A stretch of 64,000 nucleotides of DNA from Limnochordia bacterium. Lineage in GTDB: Bacteria > Bacillota > Limnochordia > DTU080. The notes under the pieces were generated by a model, which saw only the letters and a program-made list of their open reading frames with translations, searched no databases and was not told the DNA's origin. The stretch spans positions 448,001-512,000 of the forward strand of contig JBMNJG010000007.1 of the NCBI GenBank assembly GCA_050951545.1, given 5' to 3'. Shown piece by piece: positions 4,801 to 48,934 of the stretch; within the stretch, counting starts at the first letter, position 1; the number at the start of each line of letters is the position of its first letter. The position numbers and the translations under genes are program-made.

Positions 4801-5574
4801 GTTTCGCCAAGAGAGGGAGCAGTAGTAAGTGGCGAGATGGTGCTTGATCTCGCGCTAGTCGCCTATGGCGAAGTCGGCGAGATGCCTACAGACTCGTTCG
4901 TACAGGGAATCACTGTGGATGTTGATGGTCAGGTTGTTCTTTCAACTGCTGACGGCCGTGAAGTTGAGGATCTGCGGATCGATACCAATGCCTTATCCGA
5001 TGGCTCCCATCAACTTGCCGTTACGCTGACCGATGAAGTGGGCATGACGATAACGTGCCGCGCTGCGTTCACGGTGCGCAACTGGCAAGTGATGAGAGAT
5101 CGATTGGAGCCTCCGGAGGAATGGTCATTCTTTGGTGAGACGATGACGACGGATCTAAGCAAGACGACGGCCGAATCAGGTGGCTGGGCGTATGCCTCAG
5201 AGTTGGAGCAGTCCGCTTTCGAGGGCGTATCGGGGAAGGTAAAGACGACCGCCAACGAGGAGTATCTCATCTGGGAAGCCCCAGGGCTACGTAACTTCGA
5301 GATCCTTGTCTATACGACGATGAGTGACATCGGAAGTGTTGTGAGGGTGGAGGCAGACACGGGCGACTCAGAATGGGTCGGTCTTCCATGCGTCACGACA
5401 AGAGCCGGGGCCATCGGGTCTGGAGACCCGTCATGGACCACGTTTACGATTACTGGCAATGGGCCGCAAGGGGCAGAGGCCACTGCTTTTCGGCTAATCG
5501 TCGGATCAGAAGCGCCAGCATATGCACTCGGGGTCGAAGAGGTCGTGTTGGACATACGTTCGTCTTGTTTCTGA
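1837..5574 (+). CDS. Large secreted multidomain carbohydrate-active protein: CBM4/9-like, right-handed beta-helix (lyase-like), PKD, Ig-like and shared C-terminal domain
   Basis: Signal peptide; NLLANPGFE..YFDDITF (CBM-like); FYVSSGGDNHNDGTLEAPWAT..PGDTI..LPGEY (beta-helix start); WQLGDG..THVY (PKD); IDTNALSDGSHQL (Ig-like). Confidence 0.88.
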   Translation: MTFWMRKYSKPLVVFWILVALGVAVGVSAAGSVTEEANLLANPGFELGEQGDFPVGWSGRGAGKYWVKLIEEEAYSGDRMVGLFTPHDRTSGWGIQTEPIPVTAGRTYEAAGMIKLLGARVQIYIEFYGSSGARIKPYVGQTRVNDEWTWLSISGEAPEGSAYARVLLYMPPNVPNTCAYFDDITFTEIVEEEVAEEDTRRSPGTFYVSSGGDNHNDGTLEAPWATVGYASARAIPGDTIVFLPGEYEGVLKPLRSGTADAPIVFRASERRTARLAGESGAAYAIELSNVEHISVEGFHVKPKSSQGRWLLVQGSKHIRINDVLMEDATGGMPFLITHSEHIQVRDSVIQRYIGGNMARVGDSAHILFEGNAISRTGHSPFQFYPERSTRNVVIRGNVFHAAWGRNFEFFGTENILFEHNIVTNAFDGGRSASTNAKFAVERGIFRFNRVFRNWGGALHLYTFREQWLSHIRLYNNVFDDNYEYGIATSDSPAQMRDVVFVNNVFSRNDVHGGHRQVQFQSMGMPEKGPEGELVPRVRFLSNALSASDPDFMSTLSFGGRRLDIGTVESDAWRQPSLSNQSVHFSGNAAFSPQFADAKTYNHALAPGSPLIDGGRFLTSTVGAGEGRTVRVEDAMYFYDGFGIEGEQGDLVVVGSPDQLARIVKVDYEANEITLDRIVNWQDGAPVSFPWGGQAPDMGVYEHGAGGRPSVQIVARPFFVRPQDEVRLSATLANIGDPVEIRWQLGDGTIAFGAELTHVYDEPYDYPIRVRVTTKSGEVFRGTGYVVVEPMRPVDDPLLHSTFDKEDEDWWWYWKCYTPAPVDWSHEIDGASGNGVLRISNPGGGTLPLRVAPAKWDIDQYPWIFLRYRVSPGAPIGLYLDGFSDTEGRGQRKWLAAASGERNTRTGRLTPYELIDDGNWHVLLMDARLIRADFPEVSVLKRLGMEALSVSRQGDAYWLDEIAIVPDEALRNSAWEEKLTHRQRGHIDIVSPREGAVVSGEMVLDLALVAYGEVGEMPTDSFVQGITVDVDGQVVLSTADGREVEDLRIDTNALSDGSHQLAVTLTDEVGMTITCRAAFTVRNWQVMRDRLEPPEEWSFFGETMTTDLSKTTAESGGWAYASELEQSAFEGVSGKVKTTANEEYLIWEAPGLRNFEILVYTTMSDIGSVVRVEADTGDSEWVGLPCVTTRAGAIGSGDPSWTTFTITGNGPQGAEATAFRLIVGSEAPAYALGVEEVVLDIRSSCF

Positions 5575-5589
5575 TGTGCGGCCGTTGTA

Positions 5590-5743
5590 GGCATCTGCGT
5601 ACACCGCTATGGATCGAGTACTACGTCAACCAGCTAATCCGGCGATGAACGCCGTATTAGGAGGCGAGAAGACACCGGAGCAGGCCTTACATGATGTACA
5701 GCTTGTGATGGTGGATCGCTTCCGCAGTGTCTTTGGCCAGTAG
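5590..5743 (+). pseudogene. C-terminal remnant of a sugar ABC solute-binding protein
   Basis: Two frames joined by a frameshift near 5635 read TPLWIEYYVNQL and NPAMNAVLGGEKTPEQALHDVQLVMVDRFRSVFGQ*, the typical SBP C-terminal GEKTPEQAL helix. Confidence 0.55.
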
Positions 5744-5851
5744 GGACTATATCGAAATCGTCCGGTTTCGTTTCCCCGACCGATTCGGTAGCTGTAACGC
5801 ATGCCCCGGGGATGACGGTCAGCCATTGCTCGTCCCCCGGGGCTCTGCATG

Positions 5852-6577
5852 TCACAGGCGGTTGGTTTGGTAACGTGCCCACATATCATCTGCTATGCGC
5901 CAGGACTCTCCCCCCACGCCGTATCTGCTGAAGTGTTGGCATACATTCTCAATGTCTCGATGCAAAAACGCATAGGCTTGCGAGTTGAATCGAGCGTCAA
6001 CGGCCTGAGGAAAGTCGATCACCTTGATGCTGCCCTGCCAGTAAAGGATGTTGAACGGCGACAGGTCGGCATGAACCAGATGATGGGTGAGCCACAGTCT
6101 GATGTTCTCGACGAGACGCTGGTATATTTCCGGCGCTTCATCTGCTTCTAGGTGTACCCTGTTCAGCTGCGACGCCGGTCCGAGTTCATCACCGACATAC
6201 TCCATGAGAATGGCGTTCTCGCTCATGGCCAAGGACAAGGGGACGTCGGCTCCGGCGGCATGCAGCACGCTTAGGGTCTTGAACTCGTTCTCCAACCACA
6301 CGCTGAAATCGACTACCCGGCCCACTTGTGTTTTGTTTCGCGAAGCACGCCGCAAGCGAGAGTCGGCAATGTAGAAGCCTTCCCGGTACGCCGCGTCATG
6401 TCTGAAACCACGAGACTCCGGGTTTGCGTATACCTTAGCGAGCAGCAAGTCGTAACCCGTGGCGGGGTTCGCTTGGCAGCAGTAGGCAGTGGCCTCTTTG
6501 CCGCTCTTCAACGGTTCTAGGACTTCGGTTATCCAACCTTCATCGACGAAGCTTTGTAGTGTGGGCAGTTTTGACAT
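5852..6577 (-). CDS. RIO1-family serine/threonine kinase (bacterial RIO-like)
   Basis: LKSGKEATAY (RIO P-loop), ILMEYVG, LVHADLSPFNIL and VIDFPQAV motifs. Start moved to ATG 6577, after a GAGGGGAG RBS. Confidence 0.92.
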   Translation of the reverse strand: MSKLPTLQSFVDEGWITEVLEPLKSGKEATAYCCQANPATGYDLLLAKVYANPESRGFRHDAAYREGFYIADSRLRRASRNKTQVGRVVDFSVWLENEFKTLSVLHAAGADVPLSLAMSENAILMEYVGDELGPASQLNRVHLEADEAPEIYQRLVENIRLWLTHHLVHADLSPFNILYWQGSIKVIDFPQAVDARFNSQAYAFLHRDIENVCQHFSRYGVGGESWRIADDMWARYQTNRL

Positions 6578-6726
6578 CCTGCTACTCTCCCCTCGCGGGT
6601 GAGAGGCACATGAGCAGCTGCACAGTGTGCTAAAGGTGGCGTCGTGGATGGGAAGGGGCTTTCCGGGAAGCAAGGAGAGGAAAGCTTGGGCTCATCTCTG
6701 CCCTGGGCTCATGAGATGCAGAACGT

Positions 6727-6801
6727 CTAGCGGGGATTTGTTTGATCGCGTTCAGGTGAGGGCGGACGACACCGTATGCAGTTAGGCGTGCATGCTATCA
6801 T
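6727..6801 (-). CDS. Putative 24-aa leader peptide upstream of the RIO kinase (MIACTPNCIRCRPPSPERDQTNPR)
   Basis: Strong RBS GGAGGTG 6 nt before ATG 6801; TAG at 6727-6729; lies between a sigma-A-like promoter and the kinase. Confidence 0.5.
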   Translation of the reverse strand: MIACTPNCIRCRPPSPERDQTNPR

Positions 6802-6831
6802 GGCCCTCACCTCCAGTGGATGTTTGTCTCT

Positions 6832-6861
6832 AATGTAGCATGTGGGCGTTGCACGAGTCAA
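6832..6861 (-). promoter_or_regulatory. Sigma-A/70-like promoter for the leader peptide and RIO kinase
   Basis: Minus strand TTGACT-N18-TACATT, with an extended -10 TG. Confidence 0.6.
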
Positions 6862-6925
6862 CGTTGCGACCATACGGGGGGCCGCGCAAAGAACTGCGGT
6901 AATCTCCCTGCGTCCGCTTGGGTTG

Positions 6926-8307
6926 GTGGTAGGAACCTAGCGATGCGGTCTTCGCGAAGCCCTTCTGCTCATTTTGATCGCCCGAAGGGCCTATTTCCCC
7001 GCCTAAGGGCACGCTTTCCCGCCTTGATTTCGGTTCTGGGGCTACCGGGCAGCACATAACCGAACGGTAGTGACTGCCTTTTTCCACTCAGCCGATTGGG
7101 GTCAGCTCCCCAGTGCGCGATCACAGCGGGCTCGCTCGGGTCCCTCTGCGAACCGACCCTTCAGTGTTAACCCGGTCGGTGTATTTCGAGAAAGGTGGAC
7201 AGATGCAATGGACGCGCTCGGGAAACAGGCTCTGCAGTCAGACACCAGCCGGATTGGTATGTGAGGCCGGGCTAAGGATGTGGCCGCGATGGCAAGAGAG
7301 CCGCCCCATCAACCCCCGGGGCCAATGTACGTGGTAAAAGTGCAGCGATGCGGTCTTCGCGAAGCCCTTTTTGCTCATTTTGACCGCCTGAAGGGCTCTT
7401 TTCCCCGCAAGAGCACGCTTTCCCGCCTTGATTTCGCTTCTGGGGCTACCGGGCAGCACATAACCCGACGGTAGTGACGGCCTTTTCCCACTCAGCCGAT
7501 TGGATCAGCTCTCCAGTGCGCGATCACAGCGGGCTCGCTCGGGTCCCTCTGCGGACCGACCCTTCGGTGTTGCCCCGGTCGGTGCATTCGAACAGAATGG
7601 ACGGACACCATGCACACGCTTGCGAGACTGGCTCGGCAGTCGGACACCAGCCGGATTGGTATGTGAGGCCCGGCTAAGGATGTGGCCGCGATGGCAAGAG
7701 AGCCGCCCTATTTACCCCCGGAGCAGGTGTGGGTGGTAAAAGTGCAGCGATGCGGCCTTCGCGAAGCCCTTTTGGCTGGTCTGGACGGCCTGAAGGGCCC
7801 TTTTCCCCCCAAAAGAGCGCGCTTTCCCGCCCTGGTGGCCCCTCTGGAGCTACCGCGCAGCACATAACCCGACGCAATTGATAGCCTTTTCCCACTCAGT
7901 CGATGGGGTCAGCTCCCCAGTGCGCGATCACAGCTGGCTCGCTCGGGTCCCTCTGCGAACCGACCCTTCAGTGTTAACCCGGTCGGTGCATTTGGAAGAG
8001 AATGGACGGATCAATGGACACGCTCGCGAGACTGGCTCGGTAGTCAGACACCAGCCGGATTGGCATGCGAGTCGGGGCCAAGAATCCGACCGCGATGGCA
8101 AGAGAGCCCCTCATTAACCCCCGGGCCCAATGTACGTGGTAAAAGTGCAGCGATGCGGCCTTCGCGGAGCCCTTTTGGCTCATTTTGATCGCCCGAAGGG
8201 CTCATTTCCCCGCCCAAGGGCACGCTTTCCGGCCTTGATGCCTCTTCCGGAGCTGCCGGGCGGTACATAACCGAACAGTGGCGATACCTTTTTCCCACTC
8301 AGCCGAT
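6926..8307. repeat. Tandem array of ~403-bp non-coding units (3 full copies plus ~170 bp)
   Basis: Anchor AGCGATGCGG starts at 6939, 7344, 7746 and 8149 (periods 405, 402, 403). Shared blocks include CAGTGCGCGATCACAGCnGGCTCGCTCGGGTCCCTCTGCG, GACACCAGCCGGATTGG and CCGCGATGGCAAGAGAGCC. No reading frame is conserved. Confidence 0.97.
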
Positions 8308-8432
8308 GATCCGAGGGTGAAATGCTAATCGACTCCCGGTGGCCACCGGGTCTTAGCTGGCAATGCGCGCGTTTTCGGCGAAAGCTGTGGAAGGATTCTG
8401 GTCTCACGTACCGAACATCCCATCGAGACAAT

Positions 8433-8446
8433 CGAACACATGATCG
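8433..8446. promoter_or_regulatory. LexA/DinR (SOS, Cheo-box)-like operator
   Basis: CGAACACATGATCG differs at one position from the Firmicute consensus CGAAC-RNRY-GTTCG and ends ~20 bp before the likely TTG start at 8465. Confidence 0.45.
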
Positions 8447-8464
8447 TTGTGTGAGGTGAGGCCC

Positions 8465-9526
8465 TTGTACTCTCTCTATGTAGATGAGGTGAACGTGCCG
8501 CTCTCACTGCTACTGACTCGCGAGCTAAAGGCCAGCGAGAAGATCGTTTGGATGGCCTTAACGATGGATGATCAGCTGGAGGAAAGCTTCCTTTTCTCGC
8601 CCAGCCGCCTGGGGCGGCGCACGGGTATGTCCCGGCCTACCGTTCGCAGGGCGACAGCCAAGTTAACCACCGAGGGCTGGTTTGCTCCACCGGCTAGGCG
8701 GGGTCCTAGCCAGACCGCGGCACAGAAGCCATCCCCGGATAGGGTCTCCGTGCCTGTGGAGCTAGTCATGGCTACTGAAATCCATGCACAGGCCAAATTG
8801 GTTTATGCCCTACTGCTGTCCAAACCTACGGATCCACCTCGCAAAAGGCAGTTCACATACGCTGAGTTAGCCGGCCGGATGAGTCTGAGCCCCCAAACCA
8901 TCAAACACGCGGCTCGTCAGTTGGCCAAGCATGGTTGGCTGGAGATGGAGCAGGCGCACAAGCGGGCACCGATTCGCTTCACTCTCCACAACCCGGTTGA
9001 TAAGCGAAATGTAAAAGAAATACTAGACGTGCAGGATGAGCTCCACCGCGCTACGCACCTCGGAGAGGCTCTCATGCAGGCTATCTTCTTGGCGCTTGTC
9101 GATTGCCTTGACTTCGACGACGGAATGCGCCCAGGTTTCATGAGGAACCCAGCAACTGGCAAGCGTCTGGAGGTCGATCTCTTCTATTACTTGCACAATA
9201 CGGCCATGGAGTTCAATGGGGCGCAACACTACCGCGTCACGGAGCGGAATTCGGCTGAGCAGGTCCATAAGCAGCAATGCCGTGACCAGACCAAACAGCA
9301 GATCTGCGCTAAGAAGAAGATCAAGCTGATCGTGATTCAGACTCACGAGCTGTCCTGCAAGATCATCAAGCGCAAGATTCACAGGCGGCTGCCATTCCGG
9401 CGCGGTCAGGACTTCAACCGGAAGCTCATCAACTATCTCGAGTGTAGATGCGGTGAGTACCAGCAAAGAATAGATGAACGTGGCTGGGGAACCGCCAGCC
9501 AATCTGAGAGAAAGCAAGACGAGTAA
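8465..9526 (+). CDS. Tandem winged-HTH protein with a C-terminal PD-(D/E)XK (Vsr/DUF559-like) endonuclease domain
   Basis: Two internally similar HTH modules (VPLSLLLTRELKASEKIVWMAL..SPSRLGRRTGMSRPTVRRATAKLTTEGWF and VPVELVMATEIHAQAKLVYALL..TYAELAGRMSLSPQTIKHAARQLAKHGWL). Nuclease motifs RNPATGKRLEVDLFY..AMEFNGAQHY..RDQTKQQIC..IKLIVI. Start placed at TTG 8465, after GAGGTG. Confidence 0.88.
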   Translation: MYSLYVDEVNVPLSLLLTRELKASEKIVWMALTMDDQLEESFLFSPSRLGRRTGMSRPTVRRATAKLTTEGWFAPPARRGPSQTAAQKPSPDRVSVPVELVMATEIHAQAKLVYALLLSKPTDPPRKRQFTYAELAGRMSLSPQTIKHAARQLAKHGWLEMEQAHKRAPIRFTLHNPVDKRNVKEILDVQDELHRATHLGEALMQAIFLALVDCLDFDDGMRPGFMRNPATGKRLEVDLFYYLHNTAMEFNGAQHYRVTERNSAEQVHKQQCRDQTKQQICAKKKIKLIVIQTHELSCKIIKRKIHRRLPFRRGQDFNRKLINYLECRCGEYQQRIDERGWGTASQSERKQDE

Positions 9527-9713
9527 TCACCCTGGGTCACCTTGTCCGTTTCGTCAGGGCTCGCATCAGCCGTGCAGCCAATGTTGATGCGCGTCCACCC
9601 GCCGCTGGCGATCAGGGCAACACGTCTGCACTGATCTTCACTCAGACGGCACCGTGACATAACCAGCAGTTGACCGCCATGTCTCGTGTGCACTCCCAAT
9701 CCCCCTATCGACG

Positions 9714-10150
9714 GGGTCCACGCAAAAAATAGCGGAAAGTAAGTGCCGAACGTAGATTCCCAACAAGGAGTTTATGGGGCAAATGGAAAAAGAGATCTCT
9801 GACAACCATCCGCGGGCTCACGTCCGCAGAAGGAGAGATCTCTTTAACTACCAGTATAGTATATCCGGCCGAAACCATCAGCACTCAAGAGGCACCTTCG
9901 CAGGAGGAGATGAACCCTTTATCCGAGGCTGGAGGCCGCTGGCTACCCCATTGGCAGCGGATGCGTAGAAAGCGCCTGTAAGCAGGTTGTTGTTAGGCGC
10001 CACGAGCAATCGCGTTGGAGCCAACTTGGGGCACAGCAGATGCTAAACGTTGCAGCATACTCCCACGGTGAACAGTGGGACGATTTCTGGGAGAGGCTGG
10101 AGGCCGCATGATTAGGAACGGGTGTTCGCCGCGATTTCACGTGTGCACCC
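9714..10150 (+). mobile_element. Internally deleted ISKra4/ISLre2-type insertion sequence (MITE-like, ~437 bp)
   Basis: Imperfect 22-bp terminal inverted repeats GGGTCCACGCAAAAAATAGCGG (9714-9735) and GGGTGCACACGTGAAATCGCGG (reverse complement of 10129-10150), 16/22 match. Contains a transposase C-terminus YPRLEAAGYPIGSGCVESACKQVV..RWSQLGAQQML..WDDFW ending at TGA 10111. No target duplication seen. Confidence 0.75.
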
Positions 10151-10270
10151 ACCATACGGAGTTTCAGTGGAGGACGATCCGCGCCAGGCACTCAGCTCCA
10201 TGTGTTTGCAGGCATCTGGGTCGCGGCGACTAAGATGTGCATGGACCTGGTGACATGGAGGCTGGATCAG

Positions 10271-13291: not shown

Positions 13292-14458
13292 GTGGTTGAA
13301 ACGTGGATTCGGGAGTTTGAACGCTCCCATCCTCATGTGCGTATCGAATGGCTTCCGGTAGGCGAAGAAAAGGTTGTTGTGTCGATGTTGGGTGGTGTGG
13401 GACCCGATGTGACCGAGGTGTTTGGCGATTTCGCTCAACGGTTGGCCCGCGCGGGGTTGCTCCTGGATCTAAGACCGTTTGTGAAAAGGGACTTCGGTGC
13501 CCAGGAGATTGCGGATTTCTGGCCACCCGCCTGGGACGCTTCTTTCGTAAAATTCGGTTCACAGCAGGGCGTTCAGTTTCGTATCCCACGTTACATGCTT
13601 ACGACCGTCTTTTACTACAACGAAGACCTCTTCCGGCAGGGTGGTCTGGCCACCCCCGCTGAACTGGATGCTCGTGGCGCCTGGGATTGGGCAAGCCTGA
13701 GGAGCTCTGCAAAGAAGCTGACTCGGCGAACTGGCGACACGATCAGCACCTATGGGTTTGTGACTAACACCACTGCTTGGAGACGGATCGTCAACTGGGC
13801 CCGGGCTACTGGAGGCGACTTCTTCGATCCCCGTGATCCGACGCGCTTCATCGGCGATATGCCAGAAGCCGTGGAGGGCATCTCCTTTTTGCAGAACATG
13901 ATCTGGGAAGACCAGTGCATGGCTCCGGGCTGGGCACATTCATCTTTCTACCAGGGGAAGGTCGGCGTCGTAGAGGATGGTATTCATGCCATCATGGATC
14001 GGTTCGAGACCCGTATTCAACAAGCCTTTGCTTGGAACATCGTACCTACGCCCGTTGGACCAACAGGGCGCAATGCCTACACTGGTGACGATGGGTTTTC
14101 CATTTGGATTAACACTCAACATCCAGAGGAAGCGTGGAAGTTCGTGAAGTTCATGACCTCCAAGGATGGGCAAGATCTGATGATCCGGCATGAGGGGTTA
14201 GCCCCAGTGCGACAATCTGCGATGAGAAGCTACAGCGCGGTTCGTCCGCATCTGAACCTGTACTCTCTAGCACTAAACATGCAGCAGGCTGCACCGCCAA
14301 TTGCCAGCTACTTAGTCGGTGATGTGAGCCGTATCGGCGAAATCATGACTCAGGTACTGCAGACTTCATTGGTTGACAATGACAAGCCCTACGAACAGGC
14401 GGCTCGAGAGGCGAAGCCTGTTTTGGAGTCACTAATCCGAGAGTCAATGGGGCGATAG
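13292..14458 (+). CDS. Sugar ABC transporter solute-binding protein (family 1), N-terminal signal peptide missing
   Basis: FERSHPHVRIE..GGVGPDV..LLDLRP..FYYNEDLF..HPEEAWKFVKFM. The frame extends only a few codons upstream to a TAG, with no leader peptide, so it may be 5'-truncated. Confidence 0.88.
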   Translation: MVETWIREFERSHPHVRIEWLPVGEEKVVVSMLGGVGPDVTEVFGDFAQRLARAGLLLDLRPFVKRDFGAQEIADFWPPAWDASFVKFGSQQGVQFRIPRYMLTTVFYYNEDLFRQGGLATPAELDARGAWDWASLRSSAKKLTRRTGDTISTYGFVTNTTAWRRIVNWARATGGDFFDPRDPTRFIGDMPEAVEGISFLQNMIWEDQCMAPGWAHSSFYQGKVGVVEDGIHAIMDRFETRIQQAFAWNIVPTPVGPTGRNAYTGDDGFSIWINTQHPEEAWKFVKFMTSKDGQDLMIRHEGLAPVRQSAMRSYSAVRPHLNLYSLALNMQQAAPPIASYLVGDVSRIGEIMTQVLQTSLVDNDKPYEQAAREAKPVLESLIRESMGR

Positions 14459-17400: not shown

Positions 17401-18357
17401 GTACGCACGTACCAGCTCACGAAAGACGAACGCTTCCTACACGTCGCGCGGCGGGCTTTTGAAGCAGCGGTGGCCAAACTCAAGGTAAGTGAAAGCAACT
17501 TCGGTAAGAGCATAGCCCAGGCTATTCGCCAGACTCCGGAGTCCATGGTCGGCTTTGTGGCCGAGCCTCTTCCCTACGTTGTTAGAGCTCCAGAAGAGCT
17601 GCAGCTATATAAGGGCTCGCCAGTCACACTGGAAGTCACCTTTACGAGAAGGGATGCTGAAGAGGGATATCGCGGTAGCGTGCGCGTTCTTGGCACGCCT
17701 GAGGGTCTTTCTATGGAAGAGACAGAGCTTCCGTTCGAATTGAGGCCTGGTGAGCGGAGTGCCGTGCTGCGGTTCAACGCCGTGGTCGGCGATACTTTGT
17801 ATCCTGGAACGTATTCGATGCAATTCCAGGAGATAGTGACGAGGGTTTCTGCGTGCTCAGCAGTCAGAGTACGTGGCTGGCGGCGTCTGGATGCGTTTCG
17901 GCCTCCTGTAGAACATGGTTGGTTTGGCTCCTTCAGTTTCTCGGCGACACTCGAGGAGTCTGCAGGATGGACCTACGCAACTGATAGCCAAGATGCTCCC
18001 TACGGTTTGGTTAACCGACGCGTGCGTCAGGGATCTGGTGAGGAGTATCTTGTTTACGAAGTCCCTGGACTCTACAGCTTCCAGTTGGTGGCCTTGGTGC
18101 CCCATGAGGAAGTCGAGGGTCTTGGCGAATGCCTGCAAATCTGGATCGGTAATCAGGGTGAGGAATGGAGTCGGGTCGGTGTTGATGTAGCCTGGGAGGC
18201 AAGTGAAGGAATGCCGCTAGCGAAGGTTACACTCTCTCCCAGCACTCGTCTGCGGGGCGATAGGAGCCTGCTCAAGATCGTGGTCGCTGGTGCTGGTGCC
18301 AGCAGATGGCCTCAGTTGGGCGAGCTCCAGTTGGAGGGCTGGGATCTGAACTCATAG
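14461..18357 (+). CDS. Large secreted protein of the PL26/exo-rhamnogalacturonan-lyase-like (PcRGLX/YetA-like) type, with the shared C-terminal domain
   Basis: Signal peptide; LLFSDDF lectin-like N-domain; PVSSGIPLPRG..VPLQTEVLARWPDDSIRW; (alpha/alpha) barrel motifs YGWRHFGDW, HWMDLD, GHTWLQGLVDYYLFTGD. Confidence 0.82.
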   Translation: MLRSSWWHNGLFLVLVAMGTLTITMVGGAQGRLLFSDDFADAPVGGFPPGWRISARGDYLQVVNDPTAKGGRAVRILGDPSRASSMVVELSTEDPVIVIEHSVRWVKNSGLNYYVYGQPSGNNVNWFVDQRGHLNYRFTQNGKVTTAQAGLLNPGWNRVRVQADYERNEVYLYLNDLEIPALGPLPFRTPVDDWRVIRLTFYDTGRKANVSELTESYYDDVRVWSLSREEVEGADSAEPVQAISARSTIWAGDLPPRAKVVPPLPSEPPEASVERVRVPLTVTEDSGVRRIGQPVSSGIPLPRGQLWDDAGLRLLNADGVEVPLQTEVLARWPDDSIRWVLLIFQADLLPRERARFNAEYGSAVERAQRRGLQLHRDGNSLQVAAGALKWSLPSEGVTAAVDRAGEEWRWVGVPTLTARDKDGFVYISAGTSYAVDVEEDGPQRAVVRIRGELRAESPGAPGLFAFEYRLFFFRDRAVVRIDPVLTNLMAHAGAGSEVIELHEVSLVFPKWLSGQDALAYELGLLSPSDAGAQHLIGMASEATSGVPERITGKTFGGFRLAQEDVGLLRMADQPEDIMLSKRSSGWIHFTRGERQVGVGVRHFWEQFSKGFEVTPAGDLCIHLWVDGSLTMRGGEAKRHEVYVSLEDEPNMAAWLQPLMAVASPEWYSDTEGMGQPIFVYDPELLPLLDPSVAAYEEFVQEGFVQLLRNREVLKEYGWRHFGDWSTTWDPDGWGNIECDLARAFFLQFARTGELEYLRFAETAARHWMDLDIIWAADTLSWLGGGIEHSTAHRSKTVDTGHTWLQGLVDYYLFTGDRRSLEAALLTGDWFARMALERPASGPRLHNRPGARRPGWALIALMRLAHLGDPYYLEAAQALVQIMAEEQTADGQWTYGIPEAELPGEGRPQLTKGFMTALTLKGLVDYERFTGDPLAADLLVKGTRFLVDEMWDYDVGGFQYIHHPKFPPSVGSGTFLFLDSLVRTYQLTKDERFLHVARRAFEAAVAKLKVSESNFGKSIAQAIRQTPESMVGFVAEPLPYVVRAPEELQLYKGSPVTLEVTFTRRDAEEGYRGSVRVLGTPEGLSMEETELPFELRPGERSAVLRFNAVVGDTLYPGTYSMQFQEIVTRVSACSAVRVRGWRRLDAFRPPVEHGWFGSFSFSATLEESAGWTYATDSQDAPYGLVNRRVRQGSGEEYLVYEVPGLYSFQLVALVPHEEVEGLGECLQIWIGNQGEEWSRVGVDVAWEASEGMPLAKVTLSPSTRLRGDRSLLKIVVAGAGASRWPQLGELQLEGWDLNS

Positions 18358-23889: not shown

Positions 23890-26247
23890 CTGGTCCTTAC
23901 CCTTACTTAACACCGTGGCTCATGGTGAGCGGGCGAATATGCTGAACAACTCAACTGCTTCCACTGCGTTGTCCAAATGCTGCAACCCGCGCCAAAGAAC
24001 CTGGGTGCCGGGCATGCCGTCGCTTTTTCGCCCCAAGTGTCCGCCTAGCTGCCCAACCATCCGAACCGCTTCAGCCATGGTAGGTGGTTTGTCCGGTGGA
24101 CGAGGGTTCTTGGTGACAAGGCAGCACAGCCGTTTTCCATTCAACGTCAGTAAAGAATGAAGTGCAAGCAACATCGGGGGTGTCCCGGCCCAGCATGGTC
24201 AGGTGGTAGATCCTCCAGGCCACGACCATGTCCAGTCCAATACAGGCTTGCAGGCTATCAGCTGTGCCGAGTTGCCGATTGCGGATACGACAGCCACTCT
24301 TCAGCGTACGATGGTATACTTCAATACCCCAGCGGCCAGCGTACCATTCCACTCTCGTTTTGGCATCCTTCGCAGTTTCGACCGGGACCGTCGTGAGTAG
24401 CATCCATTCTAGCGGTACTGTCGGTTGCGCAGTATCGCTTTCCGGAGGGAGCTCTGAAAGGCGGACTGCCCATAGCACTATAGGTGGTCCCTTGGCATCG
24501 CGTTTAGGGGGACGCACCTCTACCTTGGAAAAACGCAGCTCAACCCAAGTATCGCGAGCTTTTCGAGAGCCAGCATGTGGAATGTGAATTTTGAGCTTCG
24601 CGGCCACGTCGCGGGCAGCCAAAAAATCCCACAGGTAGCTTTGTTCTTCTCTATCAACTTTGCGAAGAAGCGCCCTATCAGACCTGATCAGAAGCCCAGG
24701 CCCGAGAGGATCCTTGGTTGCCTCGACAAGCAATTCATACATGTCAGATTCACGATCACCGACACTGACGATCAGTGTATCGGGACACAGCTTCTGTATC
24801 TCGGCCACCTTGCGGAAACTGTGCAGCCACTTGATGCTTTCCTTTTCCTCGATAGGTAGCCGCTGTCTTTTCTTGCTTTTGCCAGTTTCCTGTGGGTCGC
24901 GTACCCAACATTGCGCATCGAGAATTCCTAACGGCGTTCCCTCTGGCGTAAAAGCCAAGGTATCGTGCAAGAGCATACCGAGACCCTCACCGCCGGAACC
25001 TGTGGGACCAAGCCCCTCCGTCATAGGATGCGTATTATAATCGAGAGTGGTGGTATCCTGAGGGGCGAGCACCACGGGATGCTCCTTGATACGCTCAATT
25101 GTGGCCTCCGTATGAGGCGTGAGTATTACGTCCATGCTAACCGCCTTATTGCTGAAGAATCGATATGCCGCCATCGTGCGAGCCTTCGAACCGCATGCCT
25201 CTGGTATGTTCGCCTCGGAGTTATTGTAGAAATCCTGAGCGAGTATGTACAGACGCTGCTTGAGCCTTTCGTCAAAGAAACGAACGGTGCCAAACTCCTC
25301 TTCAGCCCAGTGAGCTGGCTCTTCAGGCCGAGGTAGCTCACATAGTTGCACTGGTGGAGCCTGACACAGACTTTGCCGCCACTCAGCGCAAAGAGGATAG
25401 AGAAAGATTCGTTTCCGAACACCGTCTCGCCTTCCTGCTGTGACGCCGACTTCCTCCCAGTTGGCCGCTTTGTAGCATGTGCCTAAGAAATGAGAAGGAT
25501 CAACAAAGCTCTCTACCAATAACGGGCGAACGGCGTAGCGCTCCTCCCAATCGTCCGCCAGCCGAGCAAGCGCCAAGGATAGCACGTGCGAGGCCAGATT
25601 GGGTACTTCCACCGAGGGTGCGATCAAGAAGCGAGCATTGCAGACAACCTGTGGCAAATTCGCTCTTCTGGCTGCTTCAGTCCAACCAATGTGTTCGTCA
25701 CGTGCCTTGAGCGCAAACGATGCCGACGTGAAAGCTAAGGCCCCTATGGCCCCATAGATCGAGCTCTCCACCAGGTACCTAATCTGAGCGCCACATAGCG
25801 GGCCGCTCCCCAAGTAATGATAGGTATCCAAAAGAGATCGCCAGGTCTGATGCGCTTTGGCGTAGCGACTACTAACGGGTTGCACAATGATCTCACCCAA
25901 CTCCTGTAGCGAGCAGGCGACCTGTGCAACCTCTATCCCAACAGGATCACCCAGATCCTGGAAAGCAAAGGTGATGTTAACTGCAGGTAGGGAGACCAAG
26001 TCTCTACGTTCAAGCTCCGCAAGAGCTTTGCGGCAACCCATCTCCTTCGGGTCACCATTAGGCGAACGCCAATCGTTCTCATCACACAATCGCCGGGACA
26101 ACTCTCGGCGCGAGATCGAAGGCTCCGCCTTGACCCACCTGTTAATCATCTCGATAATGGACTTGGTAAAATGAAAGCCGTTGATCCACATCATGCCTAA
26201 AGGCTAGCATGATCAACCCCCCGGTGTCAAGCGTGTGCGAGGACCAG
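23890..26247 (-). mobile_element. IS4-family (IS50/Tn5-like) insertion sequence, 2358 bp, with a 9-bp target-site duplication
   Basis: Ends CTGGTCCTTACCCTTACTTAACACCG and (reverse complement) CTGGTCCTCGCACACGCTTGACACCG, 19/26 match. Flanking direct repeat GTCAGCCAG at 23881-23889 and 26248-26256. Confidence 0.93.
23920..26194 (-). pseudogene. IS4/Tn5-like transposase fused to an N-terminal DUF4338 domain, frameshifted near the C-terminus
   Basis: WAEEEFG..DERL, AAYRFFSN, QDTT, GDRESD and YAGRWGIEVYHRTLKSGC (DDE/YREK). One extra base near 24133 moves the tail (LGGHLGRKSDGMPG..LWRGL) into ORF 23920-24174. This could be a real mutation or a sequencing error. Confidence 0.9.
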
Positions 26248-42382: not shown

Positions 42383-42431
42383 TAGGCCGCCGACGTCCCG
42401 CATAGCGCGTAACACGGTTTGCTGGGGGAAG

Positions 42432-42458
42432 CTGACGGCCCCGTTACGGGGCCGTCAG
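42432..42458. terminator. Perfect 13-bp inverted repeat between convergent genes
   Basis: CTGACGGCCCCGT-T-ACGGGGCCGTCAG. Confidence 0.75.
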
Positions 42459-42475
42459 TTCATGGGTGGGTGAAG

Positions 42476-43750: not shown

Positions 43751-43959
43751 AGGAAACCCTCCTATCTGTGAATACACGTGGTGACTTCCCAGAGGTGACA
43801 GGGGTAGGCTTCATGACGGCTTCGATCTGGATGGCTGGTTTGGCATCACCCCTTCAAGAAGCGATCGGCAAGACATGAGCACCTGAAGTATATTATGACG
43901 AAACACCTGAATTCCCTGCCGTATTGGAGGTATGGACGAAGGGGATCTACGGAGGGGAT

Positions 43960-45021
43960 CTATGGTAGGTTCATCACCGTCCCTGAGGCTGCTGACGCCA
44001 CCATGGACTCGAGGAGTCTGAGAGAATCTAGCACGCTCTCGGGGGTTACCGCCAAAGGGGCCCCGTGCAGCAAGGCTGCAGCGATATTCCGATAGTAGGC
44101 GAGGTAGTCCCCTGGAACGATCTGAAGCTTTGCTTCGGGAATATCGCTTTCGAAGTGGCAGCTCTCGTATGCGATGCAGGCCTGGTCACTGCCGGAGATG
44201 ACGACGTTGCGTTTGAGTTCAGCTTCCTGAGGGTCAAGGCCTTGGATGACAAGTGCGCCCTGCGAACCGCGTACGTACCAGCGTGGGCGATCAATCTTGG
44301 AGATACTGCCTACCTCCATGCGAAAACGCACACCCTCAGCAAAACGAATCCAGCACATTGCCGCACTCTCCACGTCAATTCCTGGCCAACGGTACTGGAA
44401 ATCGGCGTAAACCGAACGCATGTTACTGCCGAAGAGCTGTATGGCCTGGTCGAGCAGGTGCGCGCCCCAGTCACGAACGGCTCCACCTCCGTAGCGAGCC
44501 TGCATCCGCCAGGGCAAGTGGCTGCCAGCAGCAGGAGGTTTTCGGTAACCTACCACGCTCGATTCTATCACGTAGGGCTCGCCAAGCAGGCCCTGCTGCA
44601 GAACTGCTTTGACAGTGAGAAAGTCGCTATCCCAGCGCCGGTTGTGAAATACGCTGAGAAGGACGCTCGCTTGCTCAGCGGCTTTGACCATCGACTCCGC
44701 CTCGGCGACATTCAGGGCCATGATCTTGTCGACGACAACATGCTTACCCCTTCTGCAAGCTTGGATGGTTAGCGGAGCGTGTGTGGAATGGGGGGTGGAG
44801 ATCACCACCAGGTCGATGCGCTTGTCGGCCAGGAGAGCATCATAGTCATCGTAGATGCGGACGGCTGGAAAGTGTTGAAGTGCTTGCTGCTGGCGGTCGG
44901 GGTTTGTGCTTAGCACCGCCCTGATCTCCAAACCCTCTGTCTCACGGATAAGGGGCCCATGAAAGGCCCTGTTGCCAAAACCGTAGCCAATTAAGCCGAC
45001 CCCGACTGTTGCCATCACCAA
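43960..45021 (-). CDS. Gfo/Idh/MocA oxidoreductase (scyllo-inositol dehydrogenase IolW/YdgJ-like)
   Basis: VGLIGYG..FH.P, GKHVVVDK, VFHNRRWDSDF and DWGAHLLDQA. Confidence 0.93.
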   Translation of the reverse strand: MVMATVGVGLIGYGFGNRAFHGPLIRETEGLEIRAVLSTNPDRQQQALQHFPAVRIYDDYDALLADKRIDLVVISTPHSTHAPLTIQACRRGKHVVVDKIMALNVAEAESMVKAAEQASVLLSVFHNRRWDSDFLTVKAVLQQGLLGEPYVIESSVVGYRKPPAAGSHLPWRMQARYGGGAVRDWGAHLLDQAIQLFGSNMRSVYADFQYRWPGIDVESAAMCWIRFAEGVRFRMEVGSISKIDRPRWYVRGSQGALVIQGLDPQEAELKRNVVISGSDQACIAYESCHFESDIPEAKLQIVPGDYLAYYRNIAAALLHGAPLAVTPESVLDSLRLLESMVASAASGTVMNLP

Positions 45022-45160
45022 TACCTCCTAAGTGTGTGATCACCTCTTGGTTTCACCTGTGAATGGTCGAAATCCTGGAAGTACGCCTGGAAACAAGGTC
45101 TAGCGCGCATGACGACGAAAGAGTTGCCCATGATAGCGATAGTTCAGCGGAGGTGGCACT

Positions 45161-46441
45161 ATGGAGTTTCGTCGATCGCTCGAGCTCTTTTCCGAGGCAC
45201 GCCAGATTATCCCGGGCGGAAGTCAGACCAATAGCAAGCGCCCGCAAGCGTTTGCCTACGGGGTTTACCCGATCTATATTGGTCGGGGTCGTGGGTGTCG
45301 TGTGGAAGATGTCGATGGAAACACTTATATCGATCTGGTTGGGGCACTTGGACCCATCAACCTTGGTTACTGTTATCCGGCTGTCAACAAGGCTATTGAG
45401 GAGCAGTTGAGTCGGGGAATCGTCTCTGGGTTGCTCTTTCGGGCAGAGCTAGAGGCGGCGCGTCTACTCACAGAGATTGTGCCCAGCGCTGAGATGGTCC
45501 GCTTCTTCAAGGGAGGCGGGGAGGCCACGGCAGCTGCGGCGCGCATCGCCCGCAAACACACCGGGCGTGAGCTCATCCTCAATTGTGGCTATCGAGGATG
45601 GCCGGACGTGTGGACTGCAGCCCGCAACGATGGCGGAGTGCCCACCGCCCTCGAATCGTCTATCCGTTCGTTTCCCTTTGGTGACATAGCTGCTCTAGAG
45701 CAGTTGTTCGCTACCAACAAAGACAACGTAGCCGCAGTGTTTCTGGACATTCTCGCCAGGGAACCAGAACCAGGGTACCTGCAGGCAGTGATCGATCTGG
45801 CCCATGCCAACGGGGCTCTTTTCGTAATGGATGAGATCGTATCTGGGTTCCGGGTGGCTACGGGTGGGGCCCAGGAATACTTCGGAGTCGTGCCAGATAT
45901 GGCGTGTTTCGCCAAAGGTATAGCCAACGGGATGCCTCTGAGTACTGTGGTCGGCAGAGCAGACGTCATGCGCCAGGCAGAGGATCTGCTTATCTCCATC
46001 ACCTATGGTGGAGAGGCACTCTCCCTGGCCGCAGCTGTGGCCACCATGCGTGAGCTACGTGAGAAAAAGGTAACTGACTATCTGTGGGATATTGGCCGTA
46101 CTCTCATGGATGGGTTAGACAATGCCGCCGTGAAAAATGGTGTGCCGTTTGAGTGCTACGGTATACCACCGATGAGCCTCATGCGCTTTCGGGATGTGGA
46201 TGCGCAGGGTAACCAGCTCGTCTGGGGTTACTTCTTACAGGAGATGGCGGCACGTGGCGTTCTTTTGAGGCGGGGTGGTGTCAACTTCGTGTCTTACAGT
46301 CATCGACCTGAAGACATTGCCGAGGTAGTCGCTGCAGCAGACCAGGTCTTTGCTGAGTTGGCAAAGCTGTGGGGAACACCGAAGCTTGCCGAGCACGTAC
46401 GCATCCAGGACGTCAAGCTTGGCTTTCGCAGTTTCGCTTAG
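45161..46441 (+). CDS. Class III PLP aminotransferase (glutamate-1-semialdehyde aminomutase-like)
   Basis: IPGGSQTNSK, DVDGNTYID, DEIVSGFR and PDMACFAKGIANG. Confidence 0.92.
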   Translation: MEFRRSLELFSEARQIIPGGSQTNSKRPQAFAYGVYPIYIGRGRGCRVEDVDGNTYIDLVGALGPINLGYCYPAVNKAIEEQLSRGIVSGLLFRAELEAARLLTEIVPSAEMVRFFKGGGEATAAAARIARKHTGRELILNCGYRGWPDVWTAARNDGGVPTALESSIRSFPFGDIAALEQLFATNKDNVAAVFLDILAREPEPGYLQAVIDLAHANGALFVMDEIVSGFRVATGGAQEYFGVVPDMACFAKGIANGMPLSTVVGRADVMRQAEDLLISITYGGEALSLAAAVATMRELREKKVTDYLWDIGRTLMDGLDNAAVKNGVPFECYGIPPMSLMRFRDVDAQGNQLVWGYFLQEMAARGVLLRRGGVNFVSYSHRPEDIAEVVAAADQVFAELAKLWGTPKLAEHVRIQDVKLGFRSFA

Positions 46442-46465
46442 TCCATCGCCCAATCTGTCTTAGGG

Positions 46466-48934
46466 GTGAGTCTACCATTGGTATATGAAGAGGTCGTACT
46501 TCAGAGCATCCCCAAGTCAGCTCTTGGCCTGTGTTGGTTGTGCGCGCTGACTCTGCTAGCTGTTTTCGCGACTCCCGTAGCAGCGACGGGTTGGCGATCC
46601 GAGCTATATCCCGCTGATTGGACTCCGGGCTTCGCAGACGCAGAGGGGCGCTTTCTGCAGGACTTCTCCTTTGCAGGCTACCATGCGGGGACGCGAGAGA
46701 TACCTGAGGGGGCTGTTGCCCCCGTCGTCGATGTCACACAACCTCCATACTCCGCTGACTTTTCTGGTCAGACGGATGCCACGCAGGCCGTTCAAGCCGC
46801 CATCGACACGGTGGGTGGGGCGGGCGGAGGCACAGTCTATCTGCCCCCGGGTACTTACCGGCTAAGCGCTCCATCTACACAAGCTTTTGCTCTAGGGATC
46901 CCCTACAGCAACGTGCGCCTACTGGGGGCCGGGTCAGAGCAGACGTATCTGCACCTGGACTGCCAGCAGATGCGGAATAAGGATGTCATTCGCGTTTATG
47001 GTGCGGGTGCCTGGCAGCACCCTGTGGGAGCTACGCAGGCGATTGCGGAACCACTGACGTATCCGACACAGATCATCCCGCTAAAGGGCAGGCCGCGTTT
47101 TGAAGTCGGGGATTGGGTGGTCATCACTCACGATACTACAGAAGCTTGGATCGCAGAGCACTACATGGACGATTTGTGGCCGCCAAGCTCGATTCCCGGG
47201 GCCACCTTCTACCGTCAGGTGTTGGCAGTGGACGACGAAAGAGCGACCATCACAGTTGATGCTCCCATTCGCTACTACCTACTACCGCGTGACAACGCCC
47301 GAGTGTACAAAGTAGGCCCTCATGTGGAAGAGGTCGGCATAGCGCACCTGGCCATCGGCATGACAGAGCACCCCGGACAAGGATGGGGTTCGTCAGATTA
47401 CGAGGTGGCTGGCACTGCGGCCTATGATATACACCATTCCCATGCCATTCGGTTCATCGGTGCCGTGAATTCCTGGGTGAATGACGTGCGCAGCTTCAAG
47501 CCGTCGGGTAATGAAAGAGTGCATCTGCTGTCTAACGGCATCCTGATCAGCCATAGTCGTTTTGTGACTATCCAGGGGGTCGATCTGCGGGAACCCCAGT
47601 ACCGGGGCGGTGGCGGTGAGGGCTACCATTTCACCTTAGCAGGCAACGATTCGCTCATTAAGAATTGCGCCGCCTACAACGGGCGGCACAACTACGACTT
47701 CAAGCAGGGCTACGCCAATGGTAACGTGATCACGCAGTGCTACGCCTATAGCCCCGACAGCCTCAATTCGGATTTCCACATGCATCTTTCACCCGCAAAT
47801 CTGATCGATCAGGTGGTGGTGGACCAGGACCGCTTTGACGCTGGCTGGCGCGGTTCATCGGGGACTACGCCTCATGGTCTTAGTACGACGCAGTCTGTTT
47901 TCTGGAATGTCCGGGGTGAAGCCTATAAGCATCGCTATCGGGCCATTGTCTACTCCGAACAGTATGGATGGGGGTATGTGATTGGCACTCAGGGAGCTGC
48001 AGATCAGGTCCAGCTGGGGCGAAACCCCCGTACCCTTCCCGAAGACTATGTCGAGGGTGTGGGGCGCGGCGAGAATTTGGATCCGCCATCTTTGTATGCA
48101 GATCAGCTGAGCCGAAGGCTGGCCCGAGACGAGATCATCCACTGCCCTGAGCTGGATTTTAGACCGCCGATGCCTAGAATCGCTATCCAGTATCCGCAGG
48201 CCAATGACAGAGTCATAGGTGACCTTTCTCTGCAGCTCACGGTGGATCCACCGCGCCAGGATACGAGCCTGACGAAAGTGACCCTCTTGCTTGATCAGGA
48301 TGTGCTCTTTACGGGAAGCGCATTGCCAGACGAGGGGCTGACCATCGATACCCGCCAACTTGAGGATGGCAGGCACACGCTGCGTGTTGAAGCCGTTTCC
48401 GAGGCCGGGCTCGCCGCCCGACAGAATGTAGCCTTCTCGGTAAGCAACAGATGGACCATGGTGGACCATCTCGATGCGCCGATTGAAATGTCTTGGTTTG
48501 GTGTGCTCTCTCGCGAGATGACGCTTGAGGCCTCGGATGGATGGGCCTACGACACGTCGCGGTCTCAAGATTTTGGTGATGACGAGAGTCGCCGTGTTCG
48601 TGATGTAGACAGCGAGGAGTATTTGGTCTGGAAGGCTACAGGACTAGAGACCTTTGCAGTGACCCTCTATTCCCAGACTACGTCAGCGGTTGACTTCGTG
48701 CGCTTAGAGGTTCTCGATGAGTCGGGTTGGCAGAAGCTTGACTTTGTCACGGAGGCCTCGGAGTCCTCAGAGAGTCCATGGTACCAGATTATCTTGACGG
48801 GTTCGGTTCCTCGGGCGACGGCCGTAGAGCGGTTGCGGCTTACTCTGCTATCCGGGGCCGGTGAAGGCCGCCGCATTCAACTGGGTGAGGTGAGGCTGTC
48901 AGGGTGGCGCACCTCACTCGATGATGGGTTGTGA
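46466..48934 (+). CDS. Secreted pectate-lyase-3-like beta-helix protein with an Ig-like and the shared C-terminal domain
   Basis: WRSELYP..LQDFSFAGYH, DATQAVQAAID..GGGTVYLPPGTY and IDTRQLEDGRHTL. Confidence 0.85.
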   Translation: MSLPLVYEEVVLQSIPKSALGLCWLCALTLLAVFATPVAATGWRSELYPADWTPGFADAEGRFLQDFSFAGYHAGTREIPEGAVAPVVDVTQPPYSADFSGQTDATQAVQAAIDTVGGAGGGTVYLPPGTYRLSAPSTQAFALGIPYSNVRLLGAGSEQTYLHLDCQQMRNKDVIRVYGAGAWQHPVGATQAIAEPLTYPTQIIPLKGRPRFEVGDWVVITHDTTEAWIAEHYMDDLWPPSSIPGATFYRQVLAVDDERATITVDAPIRYYLLPRDNARVYKVGPHVEEVGIAHLAIGMTEHPGQGWGSSDYEVAGTAAYDIHHSHAIRFIGAVNSWVNDVRSFKPSGNERVHLLSNGILISHSRFVTIQGVDLREPQYRGGGGEGYHFTLAGNDSLIKNCAAYNGRHNYDFKQGYANGNVITQCYAYSPDSLNSDFHMHLSPANLIDQVVVDQDRFDAGWRGSSGTTPHGLSTTQSVFWNVRGEAYKHRYRAIVYSEQYGWGYVIGTQGAADQVQLGRNPRTLPEDYVEGVGRGENLDPPSLYADQLSRRLARDEIIHCPELDFRPPMPRIAIQYPQANDRVIGDLSLQLTVDPPRQDTSLTKVTLLLDQDVLFTGSALPDEGLTIDTRQLEDGRHTLRVEAVSEAGLAARQNVAFSVSNRWTMVDHLDAPIEMSWFGVLSREMTLEASDGWAYDTSRSQDFGDDESRRVRDVDSEEYLVWKATGLETFAVTLYSQTTSAVDFVRLEVLDESGWQKLDFVTEASESSESPWYQIILTGSVPRATAVERLRLTLLSGAGEGRRIQLGEVRLSGWRTSLDDGL

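Follow-up and report, generated by a model that had tools for sequence, protein, structure and literature searches.

A recurrent C-terminal jelly-roll domain on exported degradative enzymes of a Limnochordia bacterium, a candidate carbohydrate-binding-like tether

Three large genes in a 64,000-nucleotide stretch of a Limnochordia bacterium genome (the window, G000:C7:448001-512000 of an assembly of 16 contigs, 3.64 Mb, 57% G+C, and 93.9% completeness) encode putatively secreted enzymes, P0001, P0002, and P0003, whose last ~160 residues resemble one another. The question raised by this locus is what such a shared C-terminal segment, here called the tail domain, does for the enzymes that carry it. 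An earlier note on this DNA proposed that the three segments form one conserved, lineage-specific domain, serving as an outer-membrane export signal, a surface anchor, a scaffold-docking module, or a new carbohydrate-binding module (CBM). With a probability of roughly 0.45, our analysis favours a non-catalytic, CBM-like module that would tether its enzymes to a ligand common to all of them, probably a glycan.

The three tails are homologous as judged from their alignments, with pairwise BLASTP E-values of 9.7e-14, 2.2e-17, and 2.2e-19, an identity of 32%, and 29 invariant columns in the three-way alignment, a similarity far beyond chance. The best mutual BLASTP match between the N-terminal parts of the same proteins reaches only E 0.003. 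The assumption of one conserved domain is thereby borne out, and every motif quoted for it by the earlier note was recovered within the last ~160 residues of P0001, P0002, and P0003. Signal-peptide-like starts, called by our own hydrophobicity rule and not by SignalP, are present on all three proteins, as had been stated. The further claim of three different catalytic cores needs correction: the P0002 core is PcRGLX/GH127-like by Pfam and does differ, whereas P0001 and P0003 both possess a right-handed beta-helix, with no detectable sequence similarity between the two. The similar Ig-like spacer ascribed to two of the proteins is indeed of the same kind in P0001 and P0003, with another kind in P0002.

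A hidden Markov model (HMM) built from the three window tails, the genome scan that the earlier note had suggested, detects the domain in 33 open reading frames (ORFs) of the host genome, a scale well understated by three segments, and a second profile search counts 34 matches. Two of the 33 ORFs are halves of one frameshifted gene, and four are partial copies, comprising one fragment at a contig edge, two identical truncated copies lying close to contig ends (C5:387951-389045 and C2:250265-251257), and one other partial. The frameshift lies inside the domain and splits a heparinase-like tail-domain gene (C13:28622-31910). Between 0 and 8 residues separate the domain from the stop in each of the 28 near-full copies, confirming the C-terminal position. 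A signal-peptide-like start accompanies 25 of the 28, the exceptions being one contig-edge fragment and two ORFs with unclear starts.

Ranked by C-terminal similarity among genome ORFs of at least 450 residues, the tail-domain family comes second, the largest family being 56 solute-binding proteins that are alike over their whole length; the host lifestyle appears strongly reliant on sugar ATP-binding cassette (ABC) transporters. Periplasmic-type solute-binding proteins with signal peptides have no tail domain, and the same is true of many large proteins with signal-peptide-like starts, such as the GHL10 protein at window positions 57832-60627, as selected by a rule that also catches membrane proteins.

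Identity to the first copy ranges from 23 to 38% across the 28 copies. All 28 paralogues have S47, G49, and W50 without exception, and P29, F35, E75, L77, P82, L84, and G170 with few exceptions. The tails are acidic, with a median isoelectric point of 4.5 and a net charge of -7.6 per 100 residues, compared with -4.1 for the rest of the same proteins and -1.2 for all ORFs of at least 400 residues. Among four orthologues of P0003, identity amounts to 83, 82, 66, and 62% in the catalytic part, 66, 66, 35, and 37% in the spacer, and 66, 61, 35, and 34% in the tail.

A beta-rich spacer precedes every near-full copy (28/28). The type-1 spacer, which is Big_7/Big_13-like, is found in 20 copies, and the type-2 spacer in the other 8, in this genome only with PcRGLX/GH127-like paralogues, one of the 8 being a contig-edge fragment without a Pfam match. 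The last 290 residues of P0003 were modelled from a 20-sequence alignment, with a predicted local distance difference test (pLDDT) score of 88.7 and a predicted template modelling (pTM) score of 0.78. The model places the strands of an Ig-like sandwich at 39-127 and the jelly roll at 130-282, with two residues between them, and the junction residue N129 is invariant. The Ig-like domain and the jelly roll are thus modelled as one two-domain tail unit, the cassette. Foldseek matches of the cassette are multimodular proteins acting on glycans, among them the CBM tandem 2c26, xanthanase 6fhn/6fhj, sialidase 2bzd/1w8o, EndoS, and the M60 peptidase ZmpB with its CBM51, at E 1e-6 to 1e-5 and template modelling (TM) scores of 0.21-0.30. 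Such low TM scores indicate a similar parts list, not a similar assembly. On the domain tree, two deep clades match the two spacer types (support 100/99). The 20-copy clade has mixed partners, a PL10 and PcRGLX-like pair of tails, for instance, grouping as sisters at 99/98. Over the tree as a whole, partner labels cluster, with 11 changes against a shuffled mean of 17.5 and 0 of 200 shuffles as low.

No catalogued family accounts for the tail at sequence level. The isolated tails match 0 Pfam families at E ≤ 10, whole P0001-P0003 give no NCBIfam match on the tail, and a profile of the 28 copies finds 0 PDB sequences at E ≤ 10. Comparison of the 28-copy alignment with three F5/8 type C domains by hhalign yields a probability of 0.2%, and CBM_4_9 is likewise without significance. 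A protein search with the isolated domain returned one 158-residue fragment at near length, and a search with the alignment for longer proteins returned 13, all termed hypothetical or named only by their catalytic part. The family is therefore taken as uncatalogued in Pfam, NCBIfam, and PDB sequences, and it may match a very recent CAZy CBM family.

The AlphaFold2 model of the tail (P0003 copy, 28-copy alignment) reaches a pLDDT of 91.7 and a pTM of 0.84 and is all-beta, with ~14 strands. Foldseek against the PDB gives 15 matches at E ≤ 0.001, the best at E 2.2e-4, with TM ≤ 0.51, including Cry domain III, tailspike C-domains, CBM6, Eph ligand-binding domains, and K1/K2 adhesins. A VIA-align comparison with 48,161 chains ranks the gingipain K1 adhesin 4itc (Z 10.1, root-mean-square deviation 3.2, 132 aligned residues) and the CE2 N-domain 2waa (Z 10.1) highest, followed by CBM27 (Z 9.9 and 9.8), CBM61 (Z 9.8), and the pectate-lyase carbohydrate-binding domain 8x8h (Z 9.7). 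CBM8, CBM6, CBM4, CBM35, and CBM36 also appear, from Z 8.8, and CBM22, MAM, and the Eph ligand-binding domain at Z ≥ 8; 72 chains in total reach Z ≥ 8, and no single family stands out. Among named ESM-Atlas clusters, CBM32 (0.87) and CBM6/35 (0.77-0.79) come closest; they serve as leads only because all lie under the 0.9 level. As VIA-align, Foldseek, and ESM-Atlas point the same way, the tail is predicted to be a galactose-binding-domain-like beta jelly roll, a common fold, here acidic and ~155 residues long. The other jelly-roll CBMs (CBM6, 35, 36, 27, 61, 4, and 22) and the gingipain K1/K2 'cleaved adhesin' domains belong to the same fold class, with Z 8-10 over 112-141 residues, but their sequence identity to the tail is just 4-15%, none standing out.

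A profile search of 1.84 billion cluster representatives matched 543 at E ≤ 0.001 and 171 at E ≤ 1e-30, and the best 150 of the 543 were examined in detail. Among these 150, 138 are single-copy with at most 25 residues after the domain, 2 are single-copy with 36 and 39, and 10 are multi-copy, with 3-11 matched stretches that are mostly internal and in tandem and start at profile position ~39. The multi-copy proteins, among them P0005, P0010, P0023, P0029, P0122, P0132, and P0134, include PL8 xanthan-lyase-like, GH10, and GH123+SLH enzymes and module-only arrays, and 3 of the 6 looked up (P0023, P0029, and P0122) have Paenibacillus source names. They represent a sister subfamily that is the nearest sequence relative of the tail, at an hhalign probability of 99.7% over 129 columns, and by this profile comparison the two subfamilies are clearly homologous. 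Common to both are the motifs FxGDxxRxxR, EE(Y/I)xxW, S-DG-xW, and Q(L)GxV. The sister subfamily lacks the first ~38 profile positions (the W..D..PP....WFG stretch) and the invariant SxGW, and its 3-11 stretches are mostly internal, some ahead of SLH anchors, whereas the window's subfamily is single and terminal.

The sister subfamily also approaches a named family. As a whole protein, the seven-copy P0023 reaches 49.8 bits against F5/8 type C (PF00754), one source names it 'F5/8 type C domain-containing', and the sister alignment matches F5/8 type C at an hhalign P of ~1e-3. The window's subfamily stays below the Pfam gathering score for F5_F8_type_C (PF00754)/CBM32. Membership in a known family and internal positions, which the earlier note had regarded as fatal to its proposal, are therefore seen only in a distant sister subfamily and not in that of the window. 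Against PDB sequences, P0023 has 0 matches at E ≤ 1, and P0010 matches xanthan, hyaluronate, and chondroitin lyase structures, in stretches that may lie outside the modules.

The window's subfamily is narrowly distributed. It occurs in 12 of 41 relatives, namely the host genome, 5/5 genomes of its own family, 1/2 and 3/4 of two other families of the order, and 2/2 of one further family, with 3-37 matches per positive genome; it was not found in nine families among the 41, which are sampled species representatives. Only 2 of 401 genomes drawn evenly from the phylum possess it, the second with a single match on one contig. That match (G389:C194:865-1374) is a single open frame of 171 residues at E 4e-60, and either mis-binning of the contig or a transfer may explain it. 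Close relatives of P0003 are found on records of Limnochordia bacterium, Clostridia bacterium DTU080, and Bacillota bacterium. The tail domain thus appears, from these searches, to be a small, clade-restricted family, in line with the description of a lineage-specific module.

The partner enzymes are diverse and mostly degradative. By Pfam, the 28 near-full copies of the host genome follow a PcRGLX/GH127-like core in 9 cases plus 2 weak ones, a beta-helix in 6, PL10 in 3, a heparinase II/III-like core in 3, and a rhamnogalacturonase-A-like (RHGA-like) core and GH16 in 1 each, with no catalytic family found in 3; the type-1 cassette (20 copies) alone accompanies at least six catalytic families. 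The wider survey covered 110 of 111 single-copy representatives of at least 450 residues at Pfam E ≤ 1e-6 and 1e-7, P0153 (1936 residues) being left out. Glycoside hydrolase (GH), polysaccharide lyase (PL), carbohydrate esterase (CE), beta-helix, or sulfatase-type families are present in 67 of the 110, including PL10, PcRGLX/GH127-like, heparinase-like, chondroitinase B, alginate lyase, GH13, GH16, GH43, GH115, GH123, CE8, GDSL, SASA, and BNR. Other families account for 5 (M60 peptidase in 2, SBP_bac_1, Metallophos, and Amidohydro_1), DUF4838 or DUF4886 only for 2, accessory domains only for 11, and ambiguous assignments (FG-GAP, PD40) for 4, with no family in 21. Some tail-domain proteins also bear CBM_4_9 or F5/8 type C domains.

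The host is, by its marker genes, a diderm Firmicute, as had been supposed, with BamA/Omp85 at 180 bits and LpxC at 304 bits. PMC11456536 describes Limnochordia as one of three Firmicute lineages keeping an outer membrane, with genomes mostly from digesters and muds, and cultivated members as diderm by electron microscopy, citing Taib et al. 2020 for outer-membrane markers. SLH (PF00395) has 5 matches in 3 ORFs of the host genome, none of them in tail-domain proteins or P0001-P0003, and the solute-binding proteins of the window have signal peptides without a lipobox. Models of the C-terminal domain (CTD) of the type IX secretion system (T9SS) (Por_Secre_tail/TIGR04183-type) match neither whole proteins at E ≤ 1 nor tails at E ≤ 10. 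SprA (TIGR04189) gives one 30-bit partial match against a cut-off of 200 bits, in a search that is not validated because its control was positive in 0 of 14 reference genomes. Neither Dockerin_1 (PF00404) nor cohesin (PF00963) is matched in the 93.9% complete genome, nor in P0001-P0003, and an LPXTG motif with a hydrophobic tail was not found at the protein ends, where 0-8 residues follow the last beta strand. The earlier observation that the domain does not look like SLH, LPXTG, dockerin, or a T9SS CTD consequently holds at sequence level.

Candidate export or docking partners were likewise sought in the host genome. No gene family lies consistently beside the tail-domain genes, and within 6 kb of them only large transport and regulator families and a 20-member enzyme family are enriched. 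The Omp85-like candidates, none of them linked to the tail domain, are BamA, a TpsB of the ShlB type, and a protein that combines AAT (acyltransferase-family) and TPR domains with an Omp85-like C-terminus. The sole secretin of the genome belongs to a PilB-PilT-PilC-PilM-PilN ... secretin ... pseudopilin cluster (G000:C7:56895-66833), and no classical type II secretion system (T2SS) operon was seen. An internal-repeat scan by windowed self-BLAST returned only a 7179-residue protein of the two-partner secretion (TPS) type and two SLH coiled-coil proteins, and none of the internally repetitive proteins found has modular receptor-like repeats.

Two repetitive proteins deserve a description of their own. 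The 7179-residue protein (G000:C7:355190-378246) is without a Pfam match and is followed by a ShlB/FhaC-type transporter; its N-terminus is TPS-like by eye, with no TPS family matched, and the two genes look like a two-partner secretion pair in a Firmicute. A protein of 1521 residues (G000:C2:143983-148545) has a single SLH domain at its N-terminus, followed by a repetitive coiled coil of ~1000 residues and, at the C-terminus, a barrel-like region. It resembles an OmpM-like tether of the outer membrane whose stalk is very long, and its gene directly follows a tail-domain gene (C2:141572-143644).

Export itself can be separated from the tail in one instance. A PL10 relative of 434 residues (G015, L071:1433-2737), from a genome of the domain-negative family f7, keeps the signal peptide, the catalytic domain, and the Ig-like domain and ends '...FTVNNR', exactly at the junction between Ig-like and tail domains. 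Because this signal-peptide-bearing relative lacks the tail, the tail would be dispensable for the export of at least one enzyme type.

The homology of the copies, their terminal position, their fold class, and the ranges of taxa and partners are established by the results above. In the favoured account, Sec-exported degradative enzymes of some Limnochordia carry an Ig-like plus jelly-roll two-domain tail that would tether them to a common glycan, either a component of the attacked biomass or matrix or the cell's own envelope glycan, and that would not recognise the substrate of each individual enzyme. A binding module of the CBM kind is indicated by the fold, by the tandem-array relatives, and by the layout of an Ig-like domain with a terminal jelly roll; CBMs are typically deployed as tandem arrays on SLH-anchored enzymes. 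A shared ligand is suggested by the breadth of partners, a few of them non-glycan, by the ordinary CBMs that co-occur in some of the same proteins, by the single copy per protein, and by the motif conserved in all paralogues. From these features we infer that the tail binds, that its ligand is a glycan, and that the paralogues have it in common. Of the four functions originally proposed, a new CBM is therefore favoured by fold and nearest relatives, and no support was found for an outer-membrane export signal.

The sialidase of Micromonospora viridifaciens (2bzd, 1w8o) offers a similar layout, in which a catalytic domain is followed by an Ig-like linker and a jelly roll of the galactose-binding kind, the last of which we take to be a C-terminal CBM32. 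The resemblance to the window's subfamily is limited, however, by a cassette TM of 0.21 and by the absence of any sequence or profile match to F5/8 type C, and unlike the F5/8 modules of such sialidases, the window's family is strictly terminal, with ~30 copies per genome.

Several observations weigh against a shared glycan tether. The structural matches are generic, with dozens of families sharing a Z of ~10 and a Foldseek TM of at most 0.51. The terminal position is strict, at most 8 residues from the end in 28/28 genomic copies and at most 25 in 138/140 single-copy representatives among the best 150 of 543, which is stricter than expected of a CBM and more typical of sorting or docking modules. 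The acidity of the tail makes direct contact with anionic pectin, alginate, or lipopolysaccharide (LPS) awkward unless cations bridge the two, and its fast evolution argues against a tightly constrained common interface. Tail-domain enzymes of 600-1570 residues may, moreover, be periplasmic rather than placed across the outer membrane.

The same evidence can be read differently. In a classical substrate-targeting CBM family, each paralogue would bind the polysaccharide of its own enzyme or a neighbouring wall polymer, the specificities having diverged, and the fold and the tandem-array relatives fit this equally well. Identities of 23-38% and a tail evolving ~2x faster than the catalytic part leave room for such divergence, partner labels are clustered on the tree (11 changes against 17.5), and one 8-copy clade sits only on PcRGLX/GH127-like enzymes, although this clustering may reflect just whole-gene duplication. 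Diverged specificities are nevertheless unlikely to be the explanation, considering that the same cassette occurs on amylase, pectate lyase, alginate lyase, chondroitinase-B-like, GH16, GH43, GH115, and sulfatase enzymes and also on a metallophosphoesterase, an amidohydrolase, a solute-binding protein, and M60 peptidases, that polar and aromatic residues are invariant in all paralogues, that the domain is strictly terminal and single-copy, and that ordinary CBMs are already present in some of the same proteins. An adaptor to proteins in place of glycans, in the manner of a dockerin, would bring the enzymes together, either on a scaffold at the surface or through mutual association. Like the type I dockerin of cellulosomal Clostridia, the tail is present as one terminal copy on many different degradative Firmicute enzymes, its motif is conserved across paralogues, and C-terminal jelly rolls of phage tailspike depolymerases (8iq9, 5w6h) are among the Foldseek matches. 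A dockerin, however, is a ~60-residue calcium-binding helical module and the tail a ~155-residue beta jelly roll; with no cohesin or dockerin match in the 93.9% complete genome, no modular receptor-like protein in the repeat scan, and no conserved neighbour gene, such docking or oligomerisation is highly doubtful.

A sorting function would assign the tail to the export route: after Sec, an outer-membrane machine would recognise the folded domain, move the enzyme across, and perhaps attach it or cleave the tag. The T9SS CTD (Por secretion tail) of Bacteroidota provides the precedent, being terminal on many Sec-exported hydrolases per genome with an Ig-like domain ahead, and the tail likewise has a strictly C-terminal position, a signal-peptide-like N-terminus in 25/28 copies, and an Ig-like domain before it. 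Its cargo proteins number in the dozens, with 3-37 matches in each of the 12 positive genomes, and extend beyond carbohydrate-active enzymes. The T9SS CTD is, however, a 70-100-residue Ig-like sandwich, from which the ~155-residue jelly roll differs in fold, size, and phylum; CTD models remain unmatched, and SprA gives only its 30-bit partial match against the 200-bit cut-off in the unvalidated search. Other circumstances are favourable, since the host has an outer membrane with LPS genes, cultivated Limnochordia are diderm (PMC11456536), no classical T2SS was seen and the sole secretin is in a pilus-type cluster, no T9SS marker exceeds its cut-off, and periplasmic-type solute-binding proteins with signal peptides lack the tail. 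Many large signal-peptide-like proteins such as GHL10 also do without it, as does the PL10 relative in a related diderm genome; the nearest relatives are internal and in tandem, the named ones from Paenibacillus; and no gene family is consistently adjacent. Paenibacillus is taken as monoderm. Such a route is accordingly quite improbable, and we would give equally little credence to its more specific form, in which the tail would be the recognition or attachment tag of an undescribed pathway taking folded enzymes across the outer membrane of diderm Firmicutes or fixing them there, with a CBM-type jelly roll recruited as the Terrabacterial equivalent of the T9SS CTD.

The positions of the three genes and their spacer and tail domains are collected in Table 1. 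Both type-1 spacers have weak Pfam matches under the cut-off, Big_13 for P0001 (residues 1021-1080, E 0.0022) and Big_7 for P0003 (residues 570-641, E 0.0013). The true start of P0003 may lie downstream of the GTG.

Table 1. Tail-domain genes of the window and the limits of their spacer and tail domains.
Feature	Position	Strand	Description
P0001 gene, 1245 aa	1837..5574	+	signal peptide, right-handed beta-helix (PF13229), PKD, Ig-like spacer, tail domain
Type-1 Ig-like spacer of P0001, residues ~985-1082	4789..5082	+	in the 20-copy upstream cluster
Tail jelly-roll domain, copy 1, P0001 residues 1083-1245	5083..5571	+	
P0002 gene, 1298 aa	14461..18357	+	signal peptide, PcRGLX-like and GH127-like core, type-2 spacer, tail domain
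Type-2 beta-rich spacer of P0002	17575..17877	+	8-member upstream cluster; no Pfam match
Tail jelly-roll domain, copy 2, P0002 residues 1140-1298	17878..18354	+	
P0003 gene, 822 aa from GTG start	46466..48934	+	signal peptide, rhamnogalacturonase-A-like beta-helix (PF12708), Ig-like spacer, tail domain
Type-1 Ig-like spacer of P0003	48176..48448	+	modelled beta sandwich, strands 39-127 of the 290-residue cassette model
Tail jelly-roll domain (modelled fold), copy 3, P0003 residues 662-822	48449..48931	+	copy used for the structure model

The surroundings of these genes in the window include a solute-binding-protein ORF (13292-14458, + strand) without a visible signal peptide, which ends 3 nucleotides ahead of the P0002 start. 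Elsewhere, in the cluster representative P0095, a solute-binding protein and the Ig-like plus tail cassette are joined in one chain. The window further contains a 359-residue ORF with two winged-helix regions (8447-9526, + strand), whose Pfam list is the same as that of L072:12753-13934, a RIO1-type kinase gene (5852-6673, - strand), and a 707-residue ORF with DruA-like and transposase DNA-binding domains (24071-26194, - strand).

At title and abstract level, no published description of the tail domain was found in the Limnochordia literature, and the literature found gives no account of how Limnochordia place large polysaccharide lyases and hydrolases beyond the outer membrane. The tail domain appears to be a new family in a known fold class, deployed with unusual uniformity, at the terminus and in expanded numbers, in a diderm lineage that has received little study. 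Borne by as many as 37 exported enzymes in a genome, this uncatalogued module offers an experimental handle on how enzymes are placed beyond the outer membrane. If the tail is a CBM, it would found a new family with an unusually broad partner range and provide a marker for the outward-facing enzyme set, and if it is a tag or anchor, it would point to a new localisation system. Either way, it concerns ~160 residues per protein that annotation pipelines currently leave unnamed.

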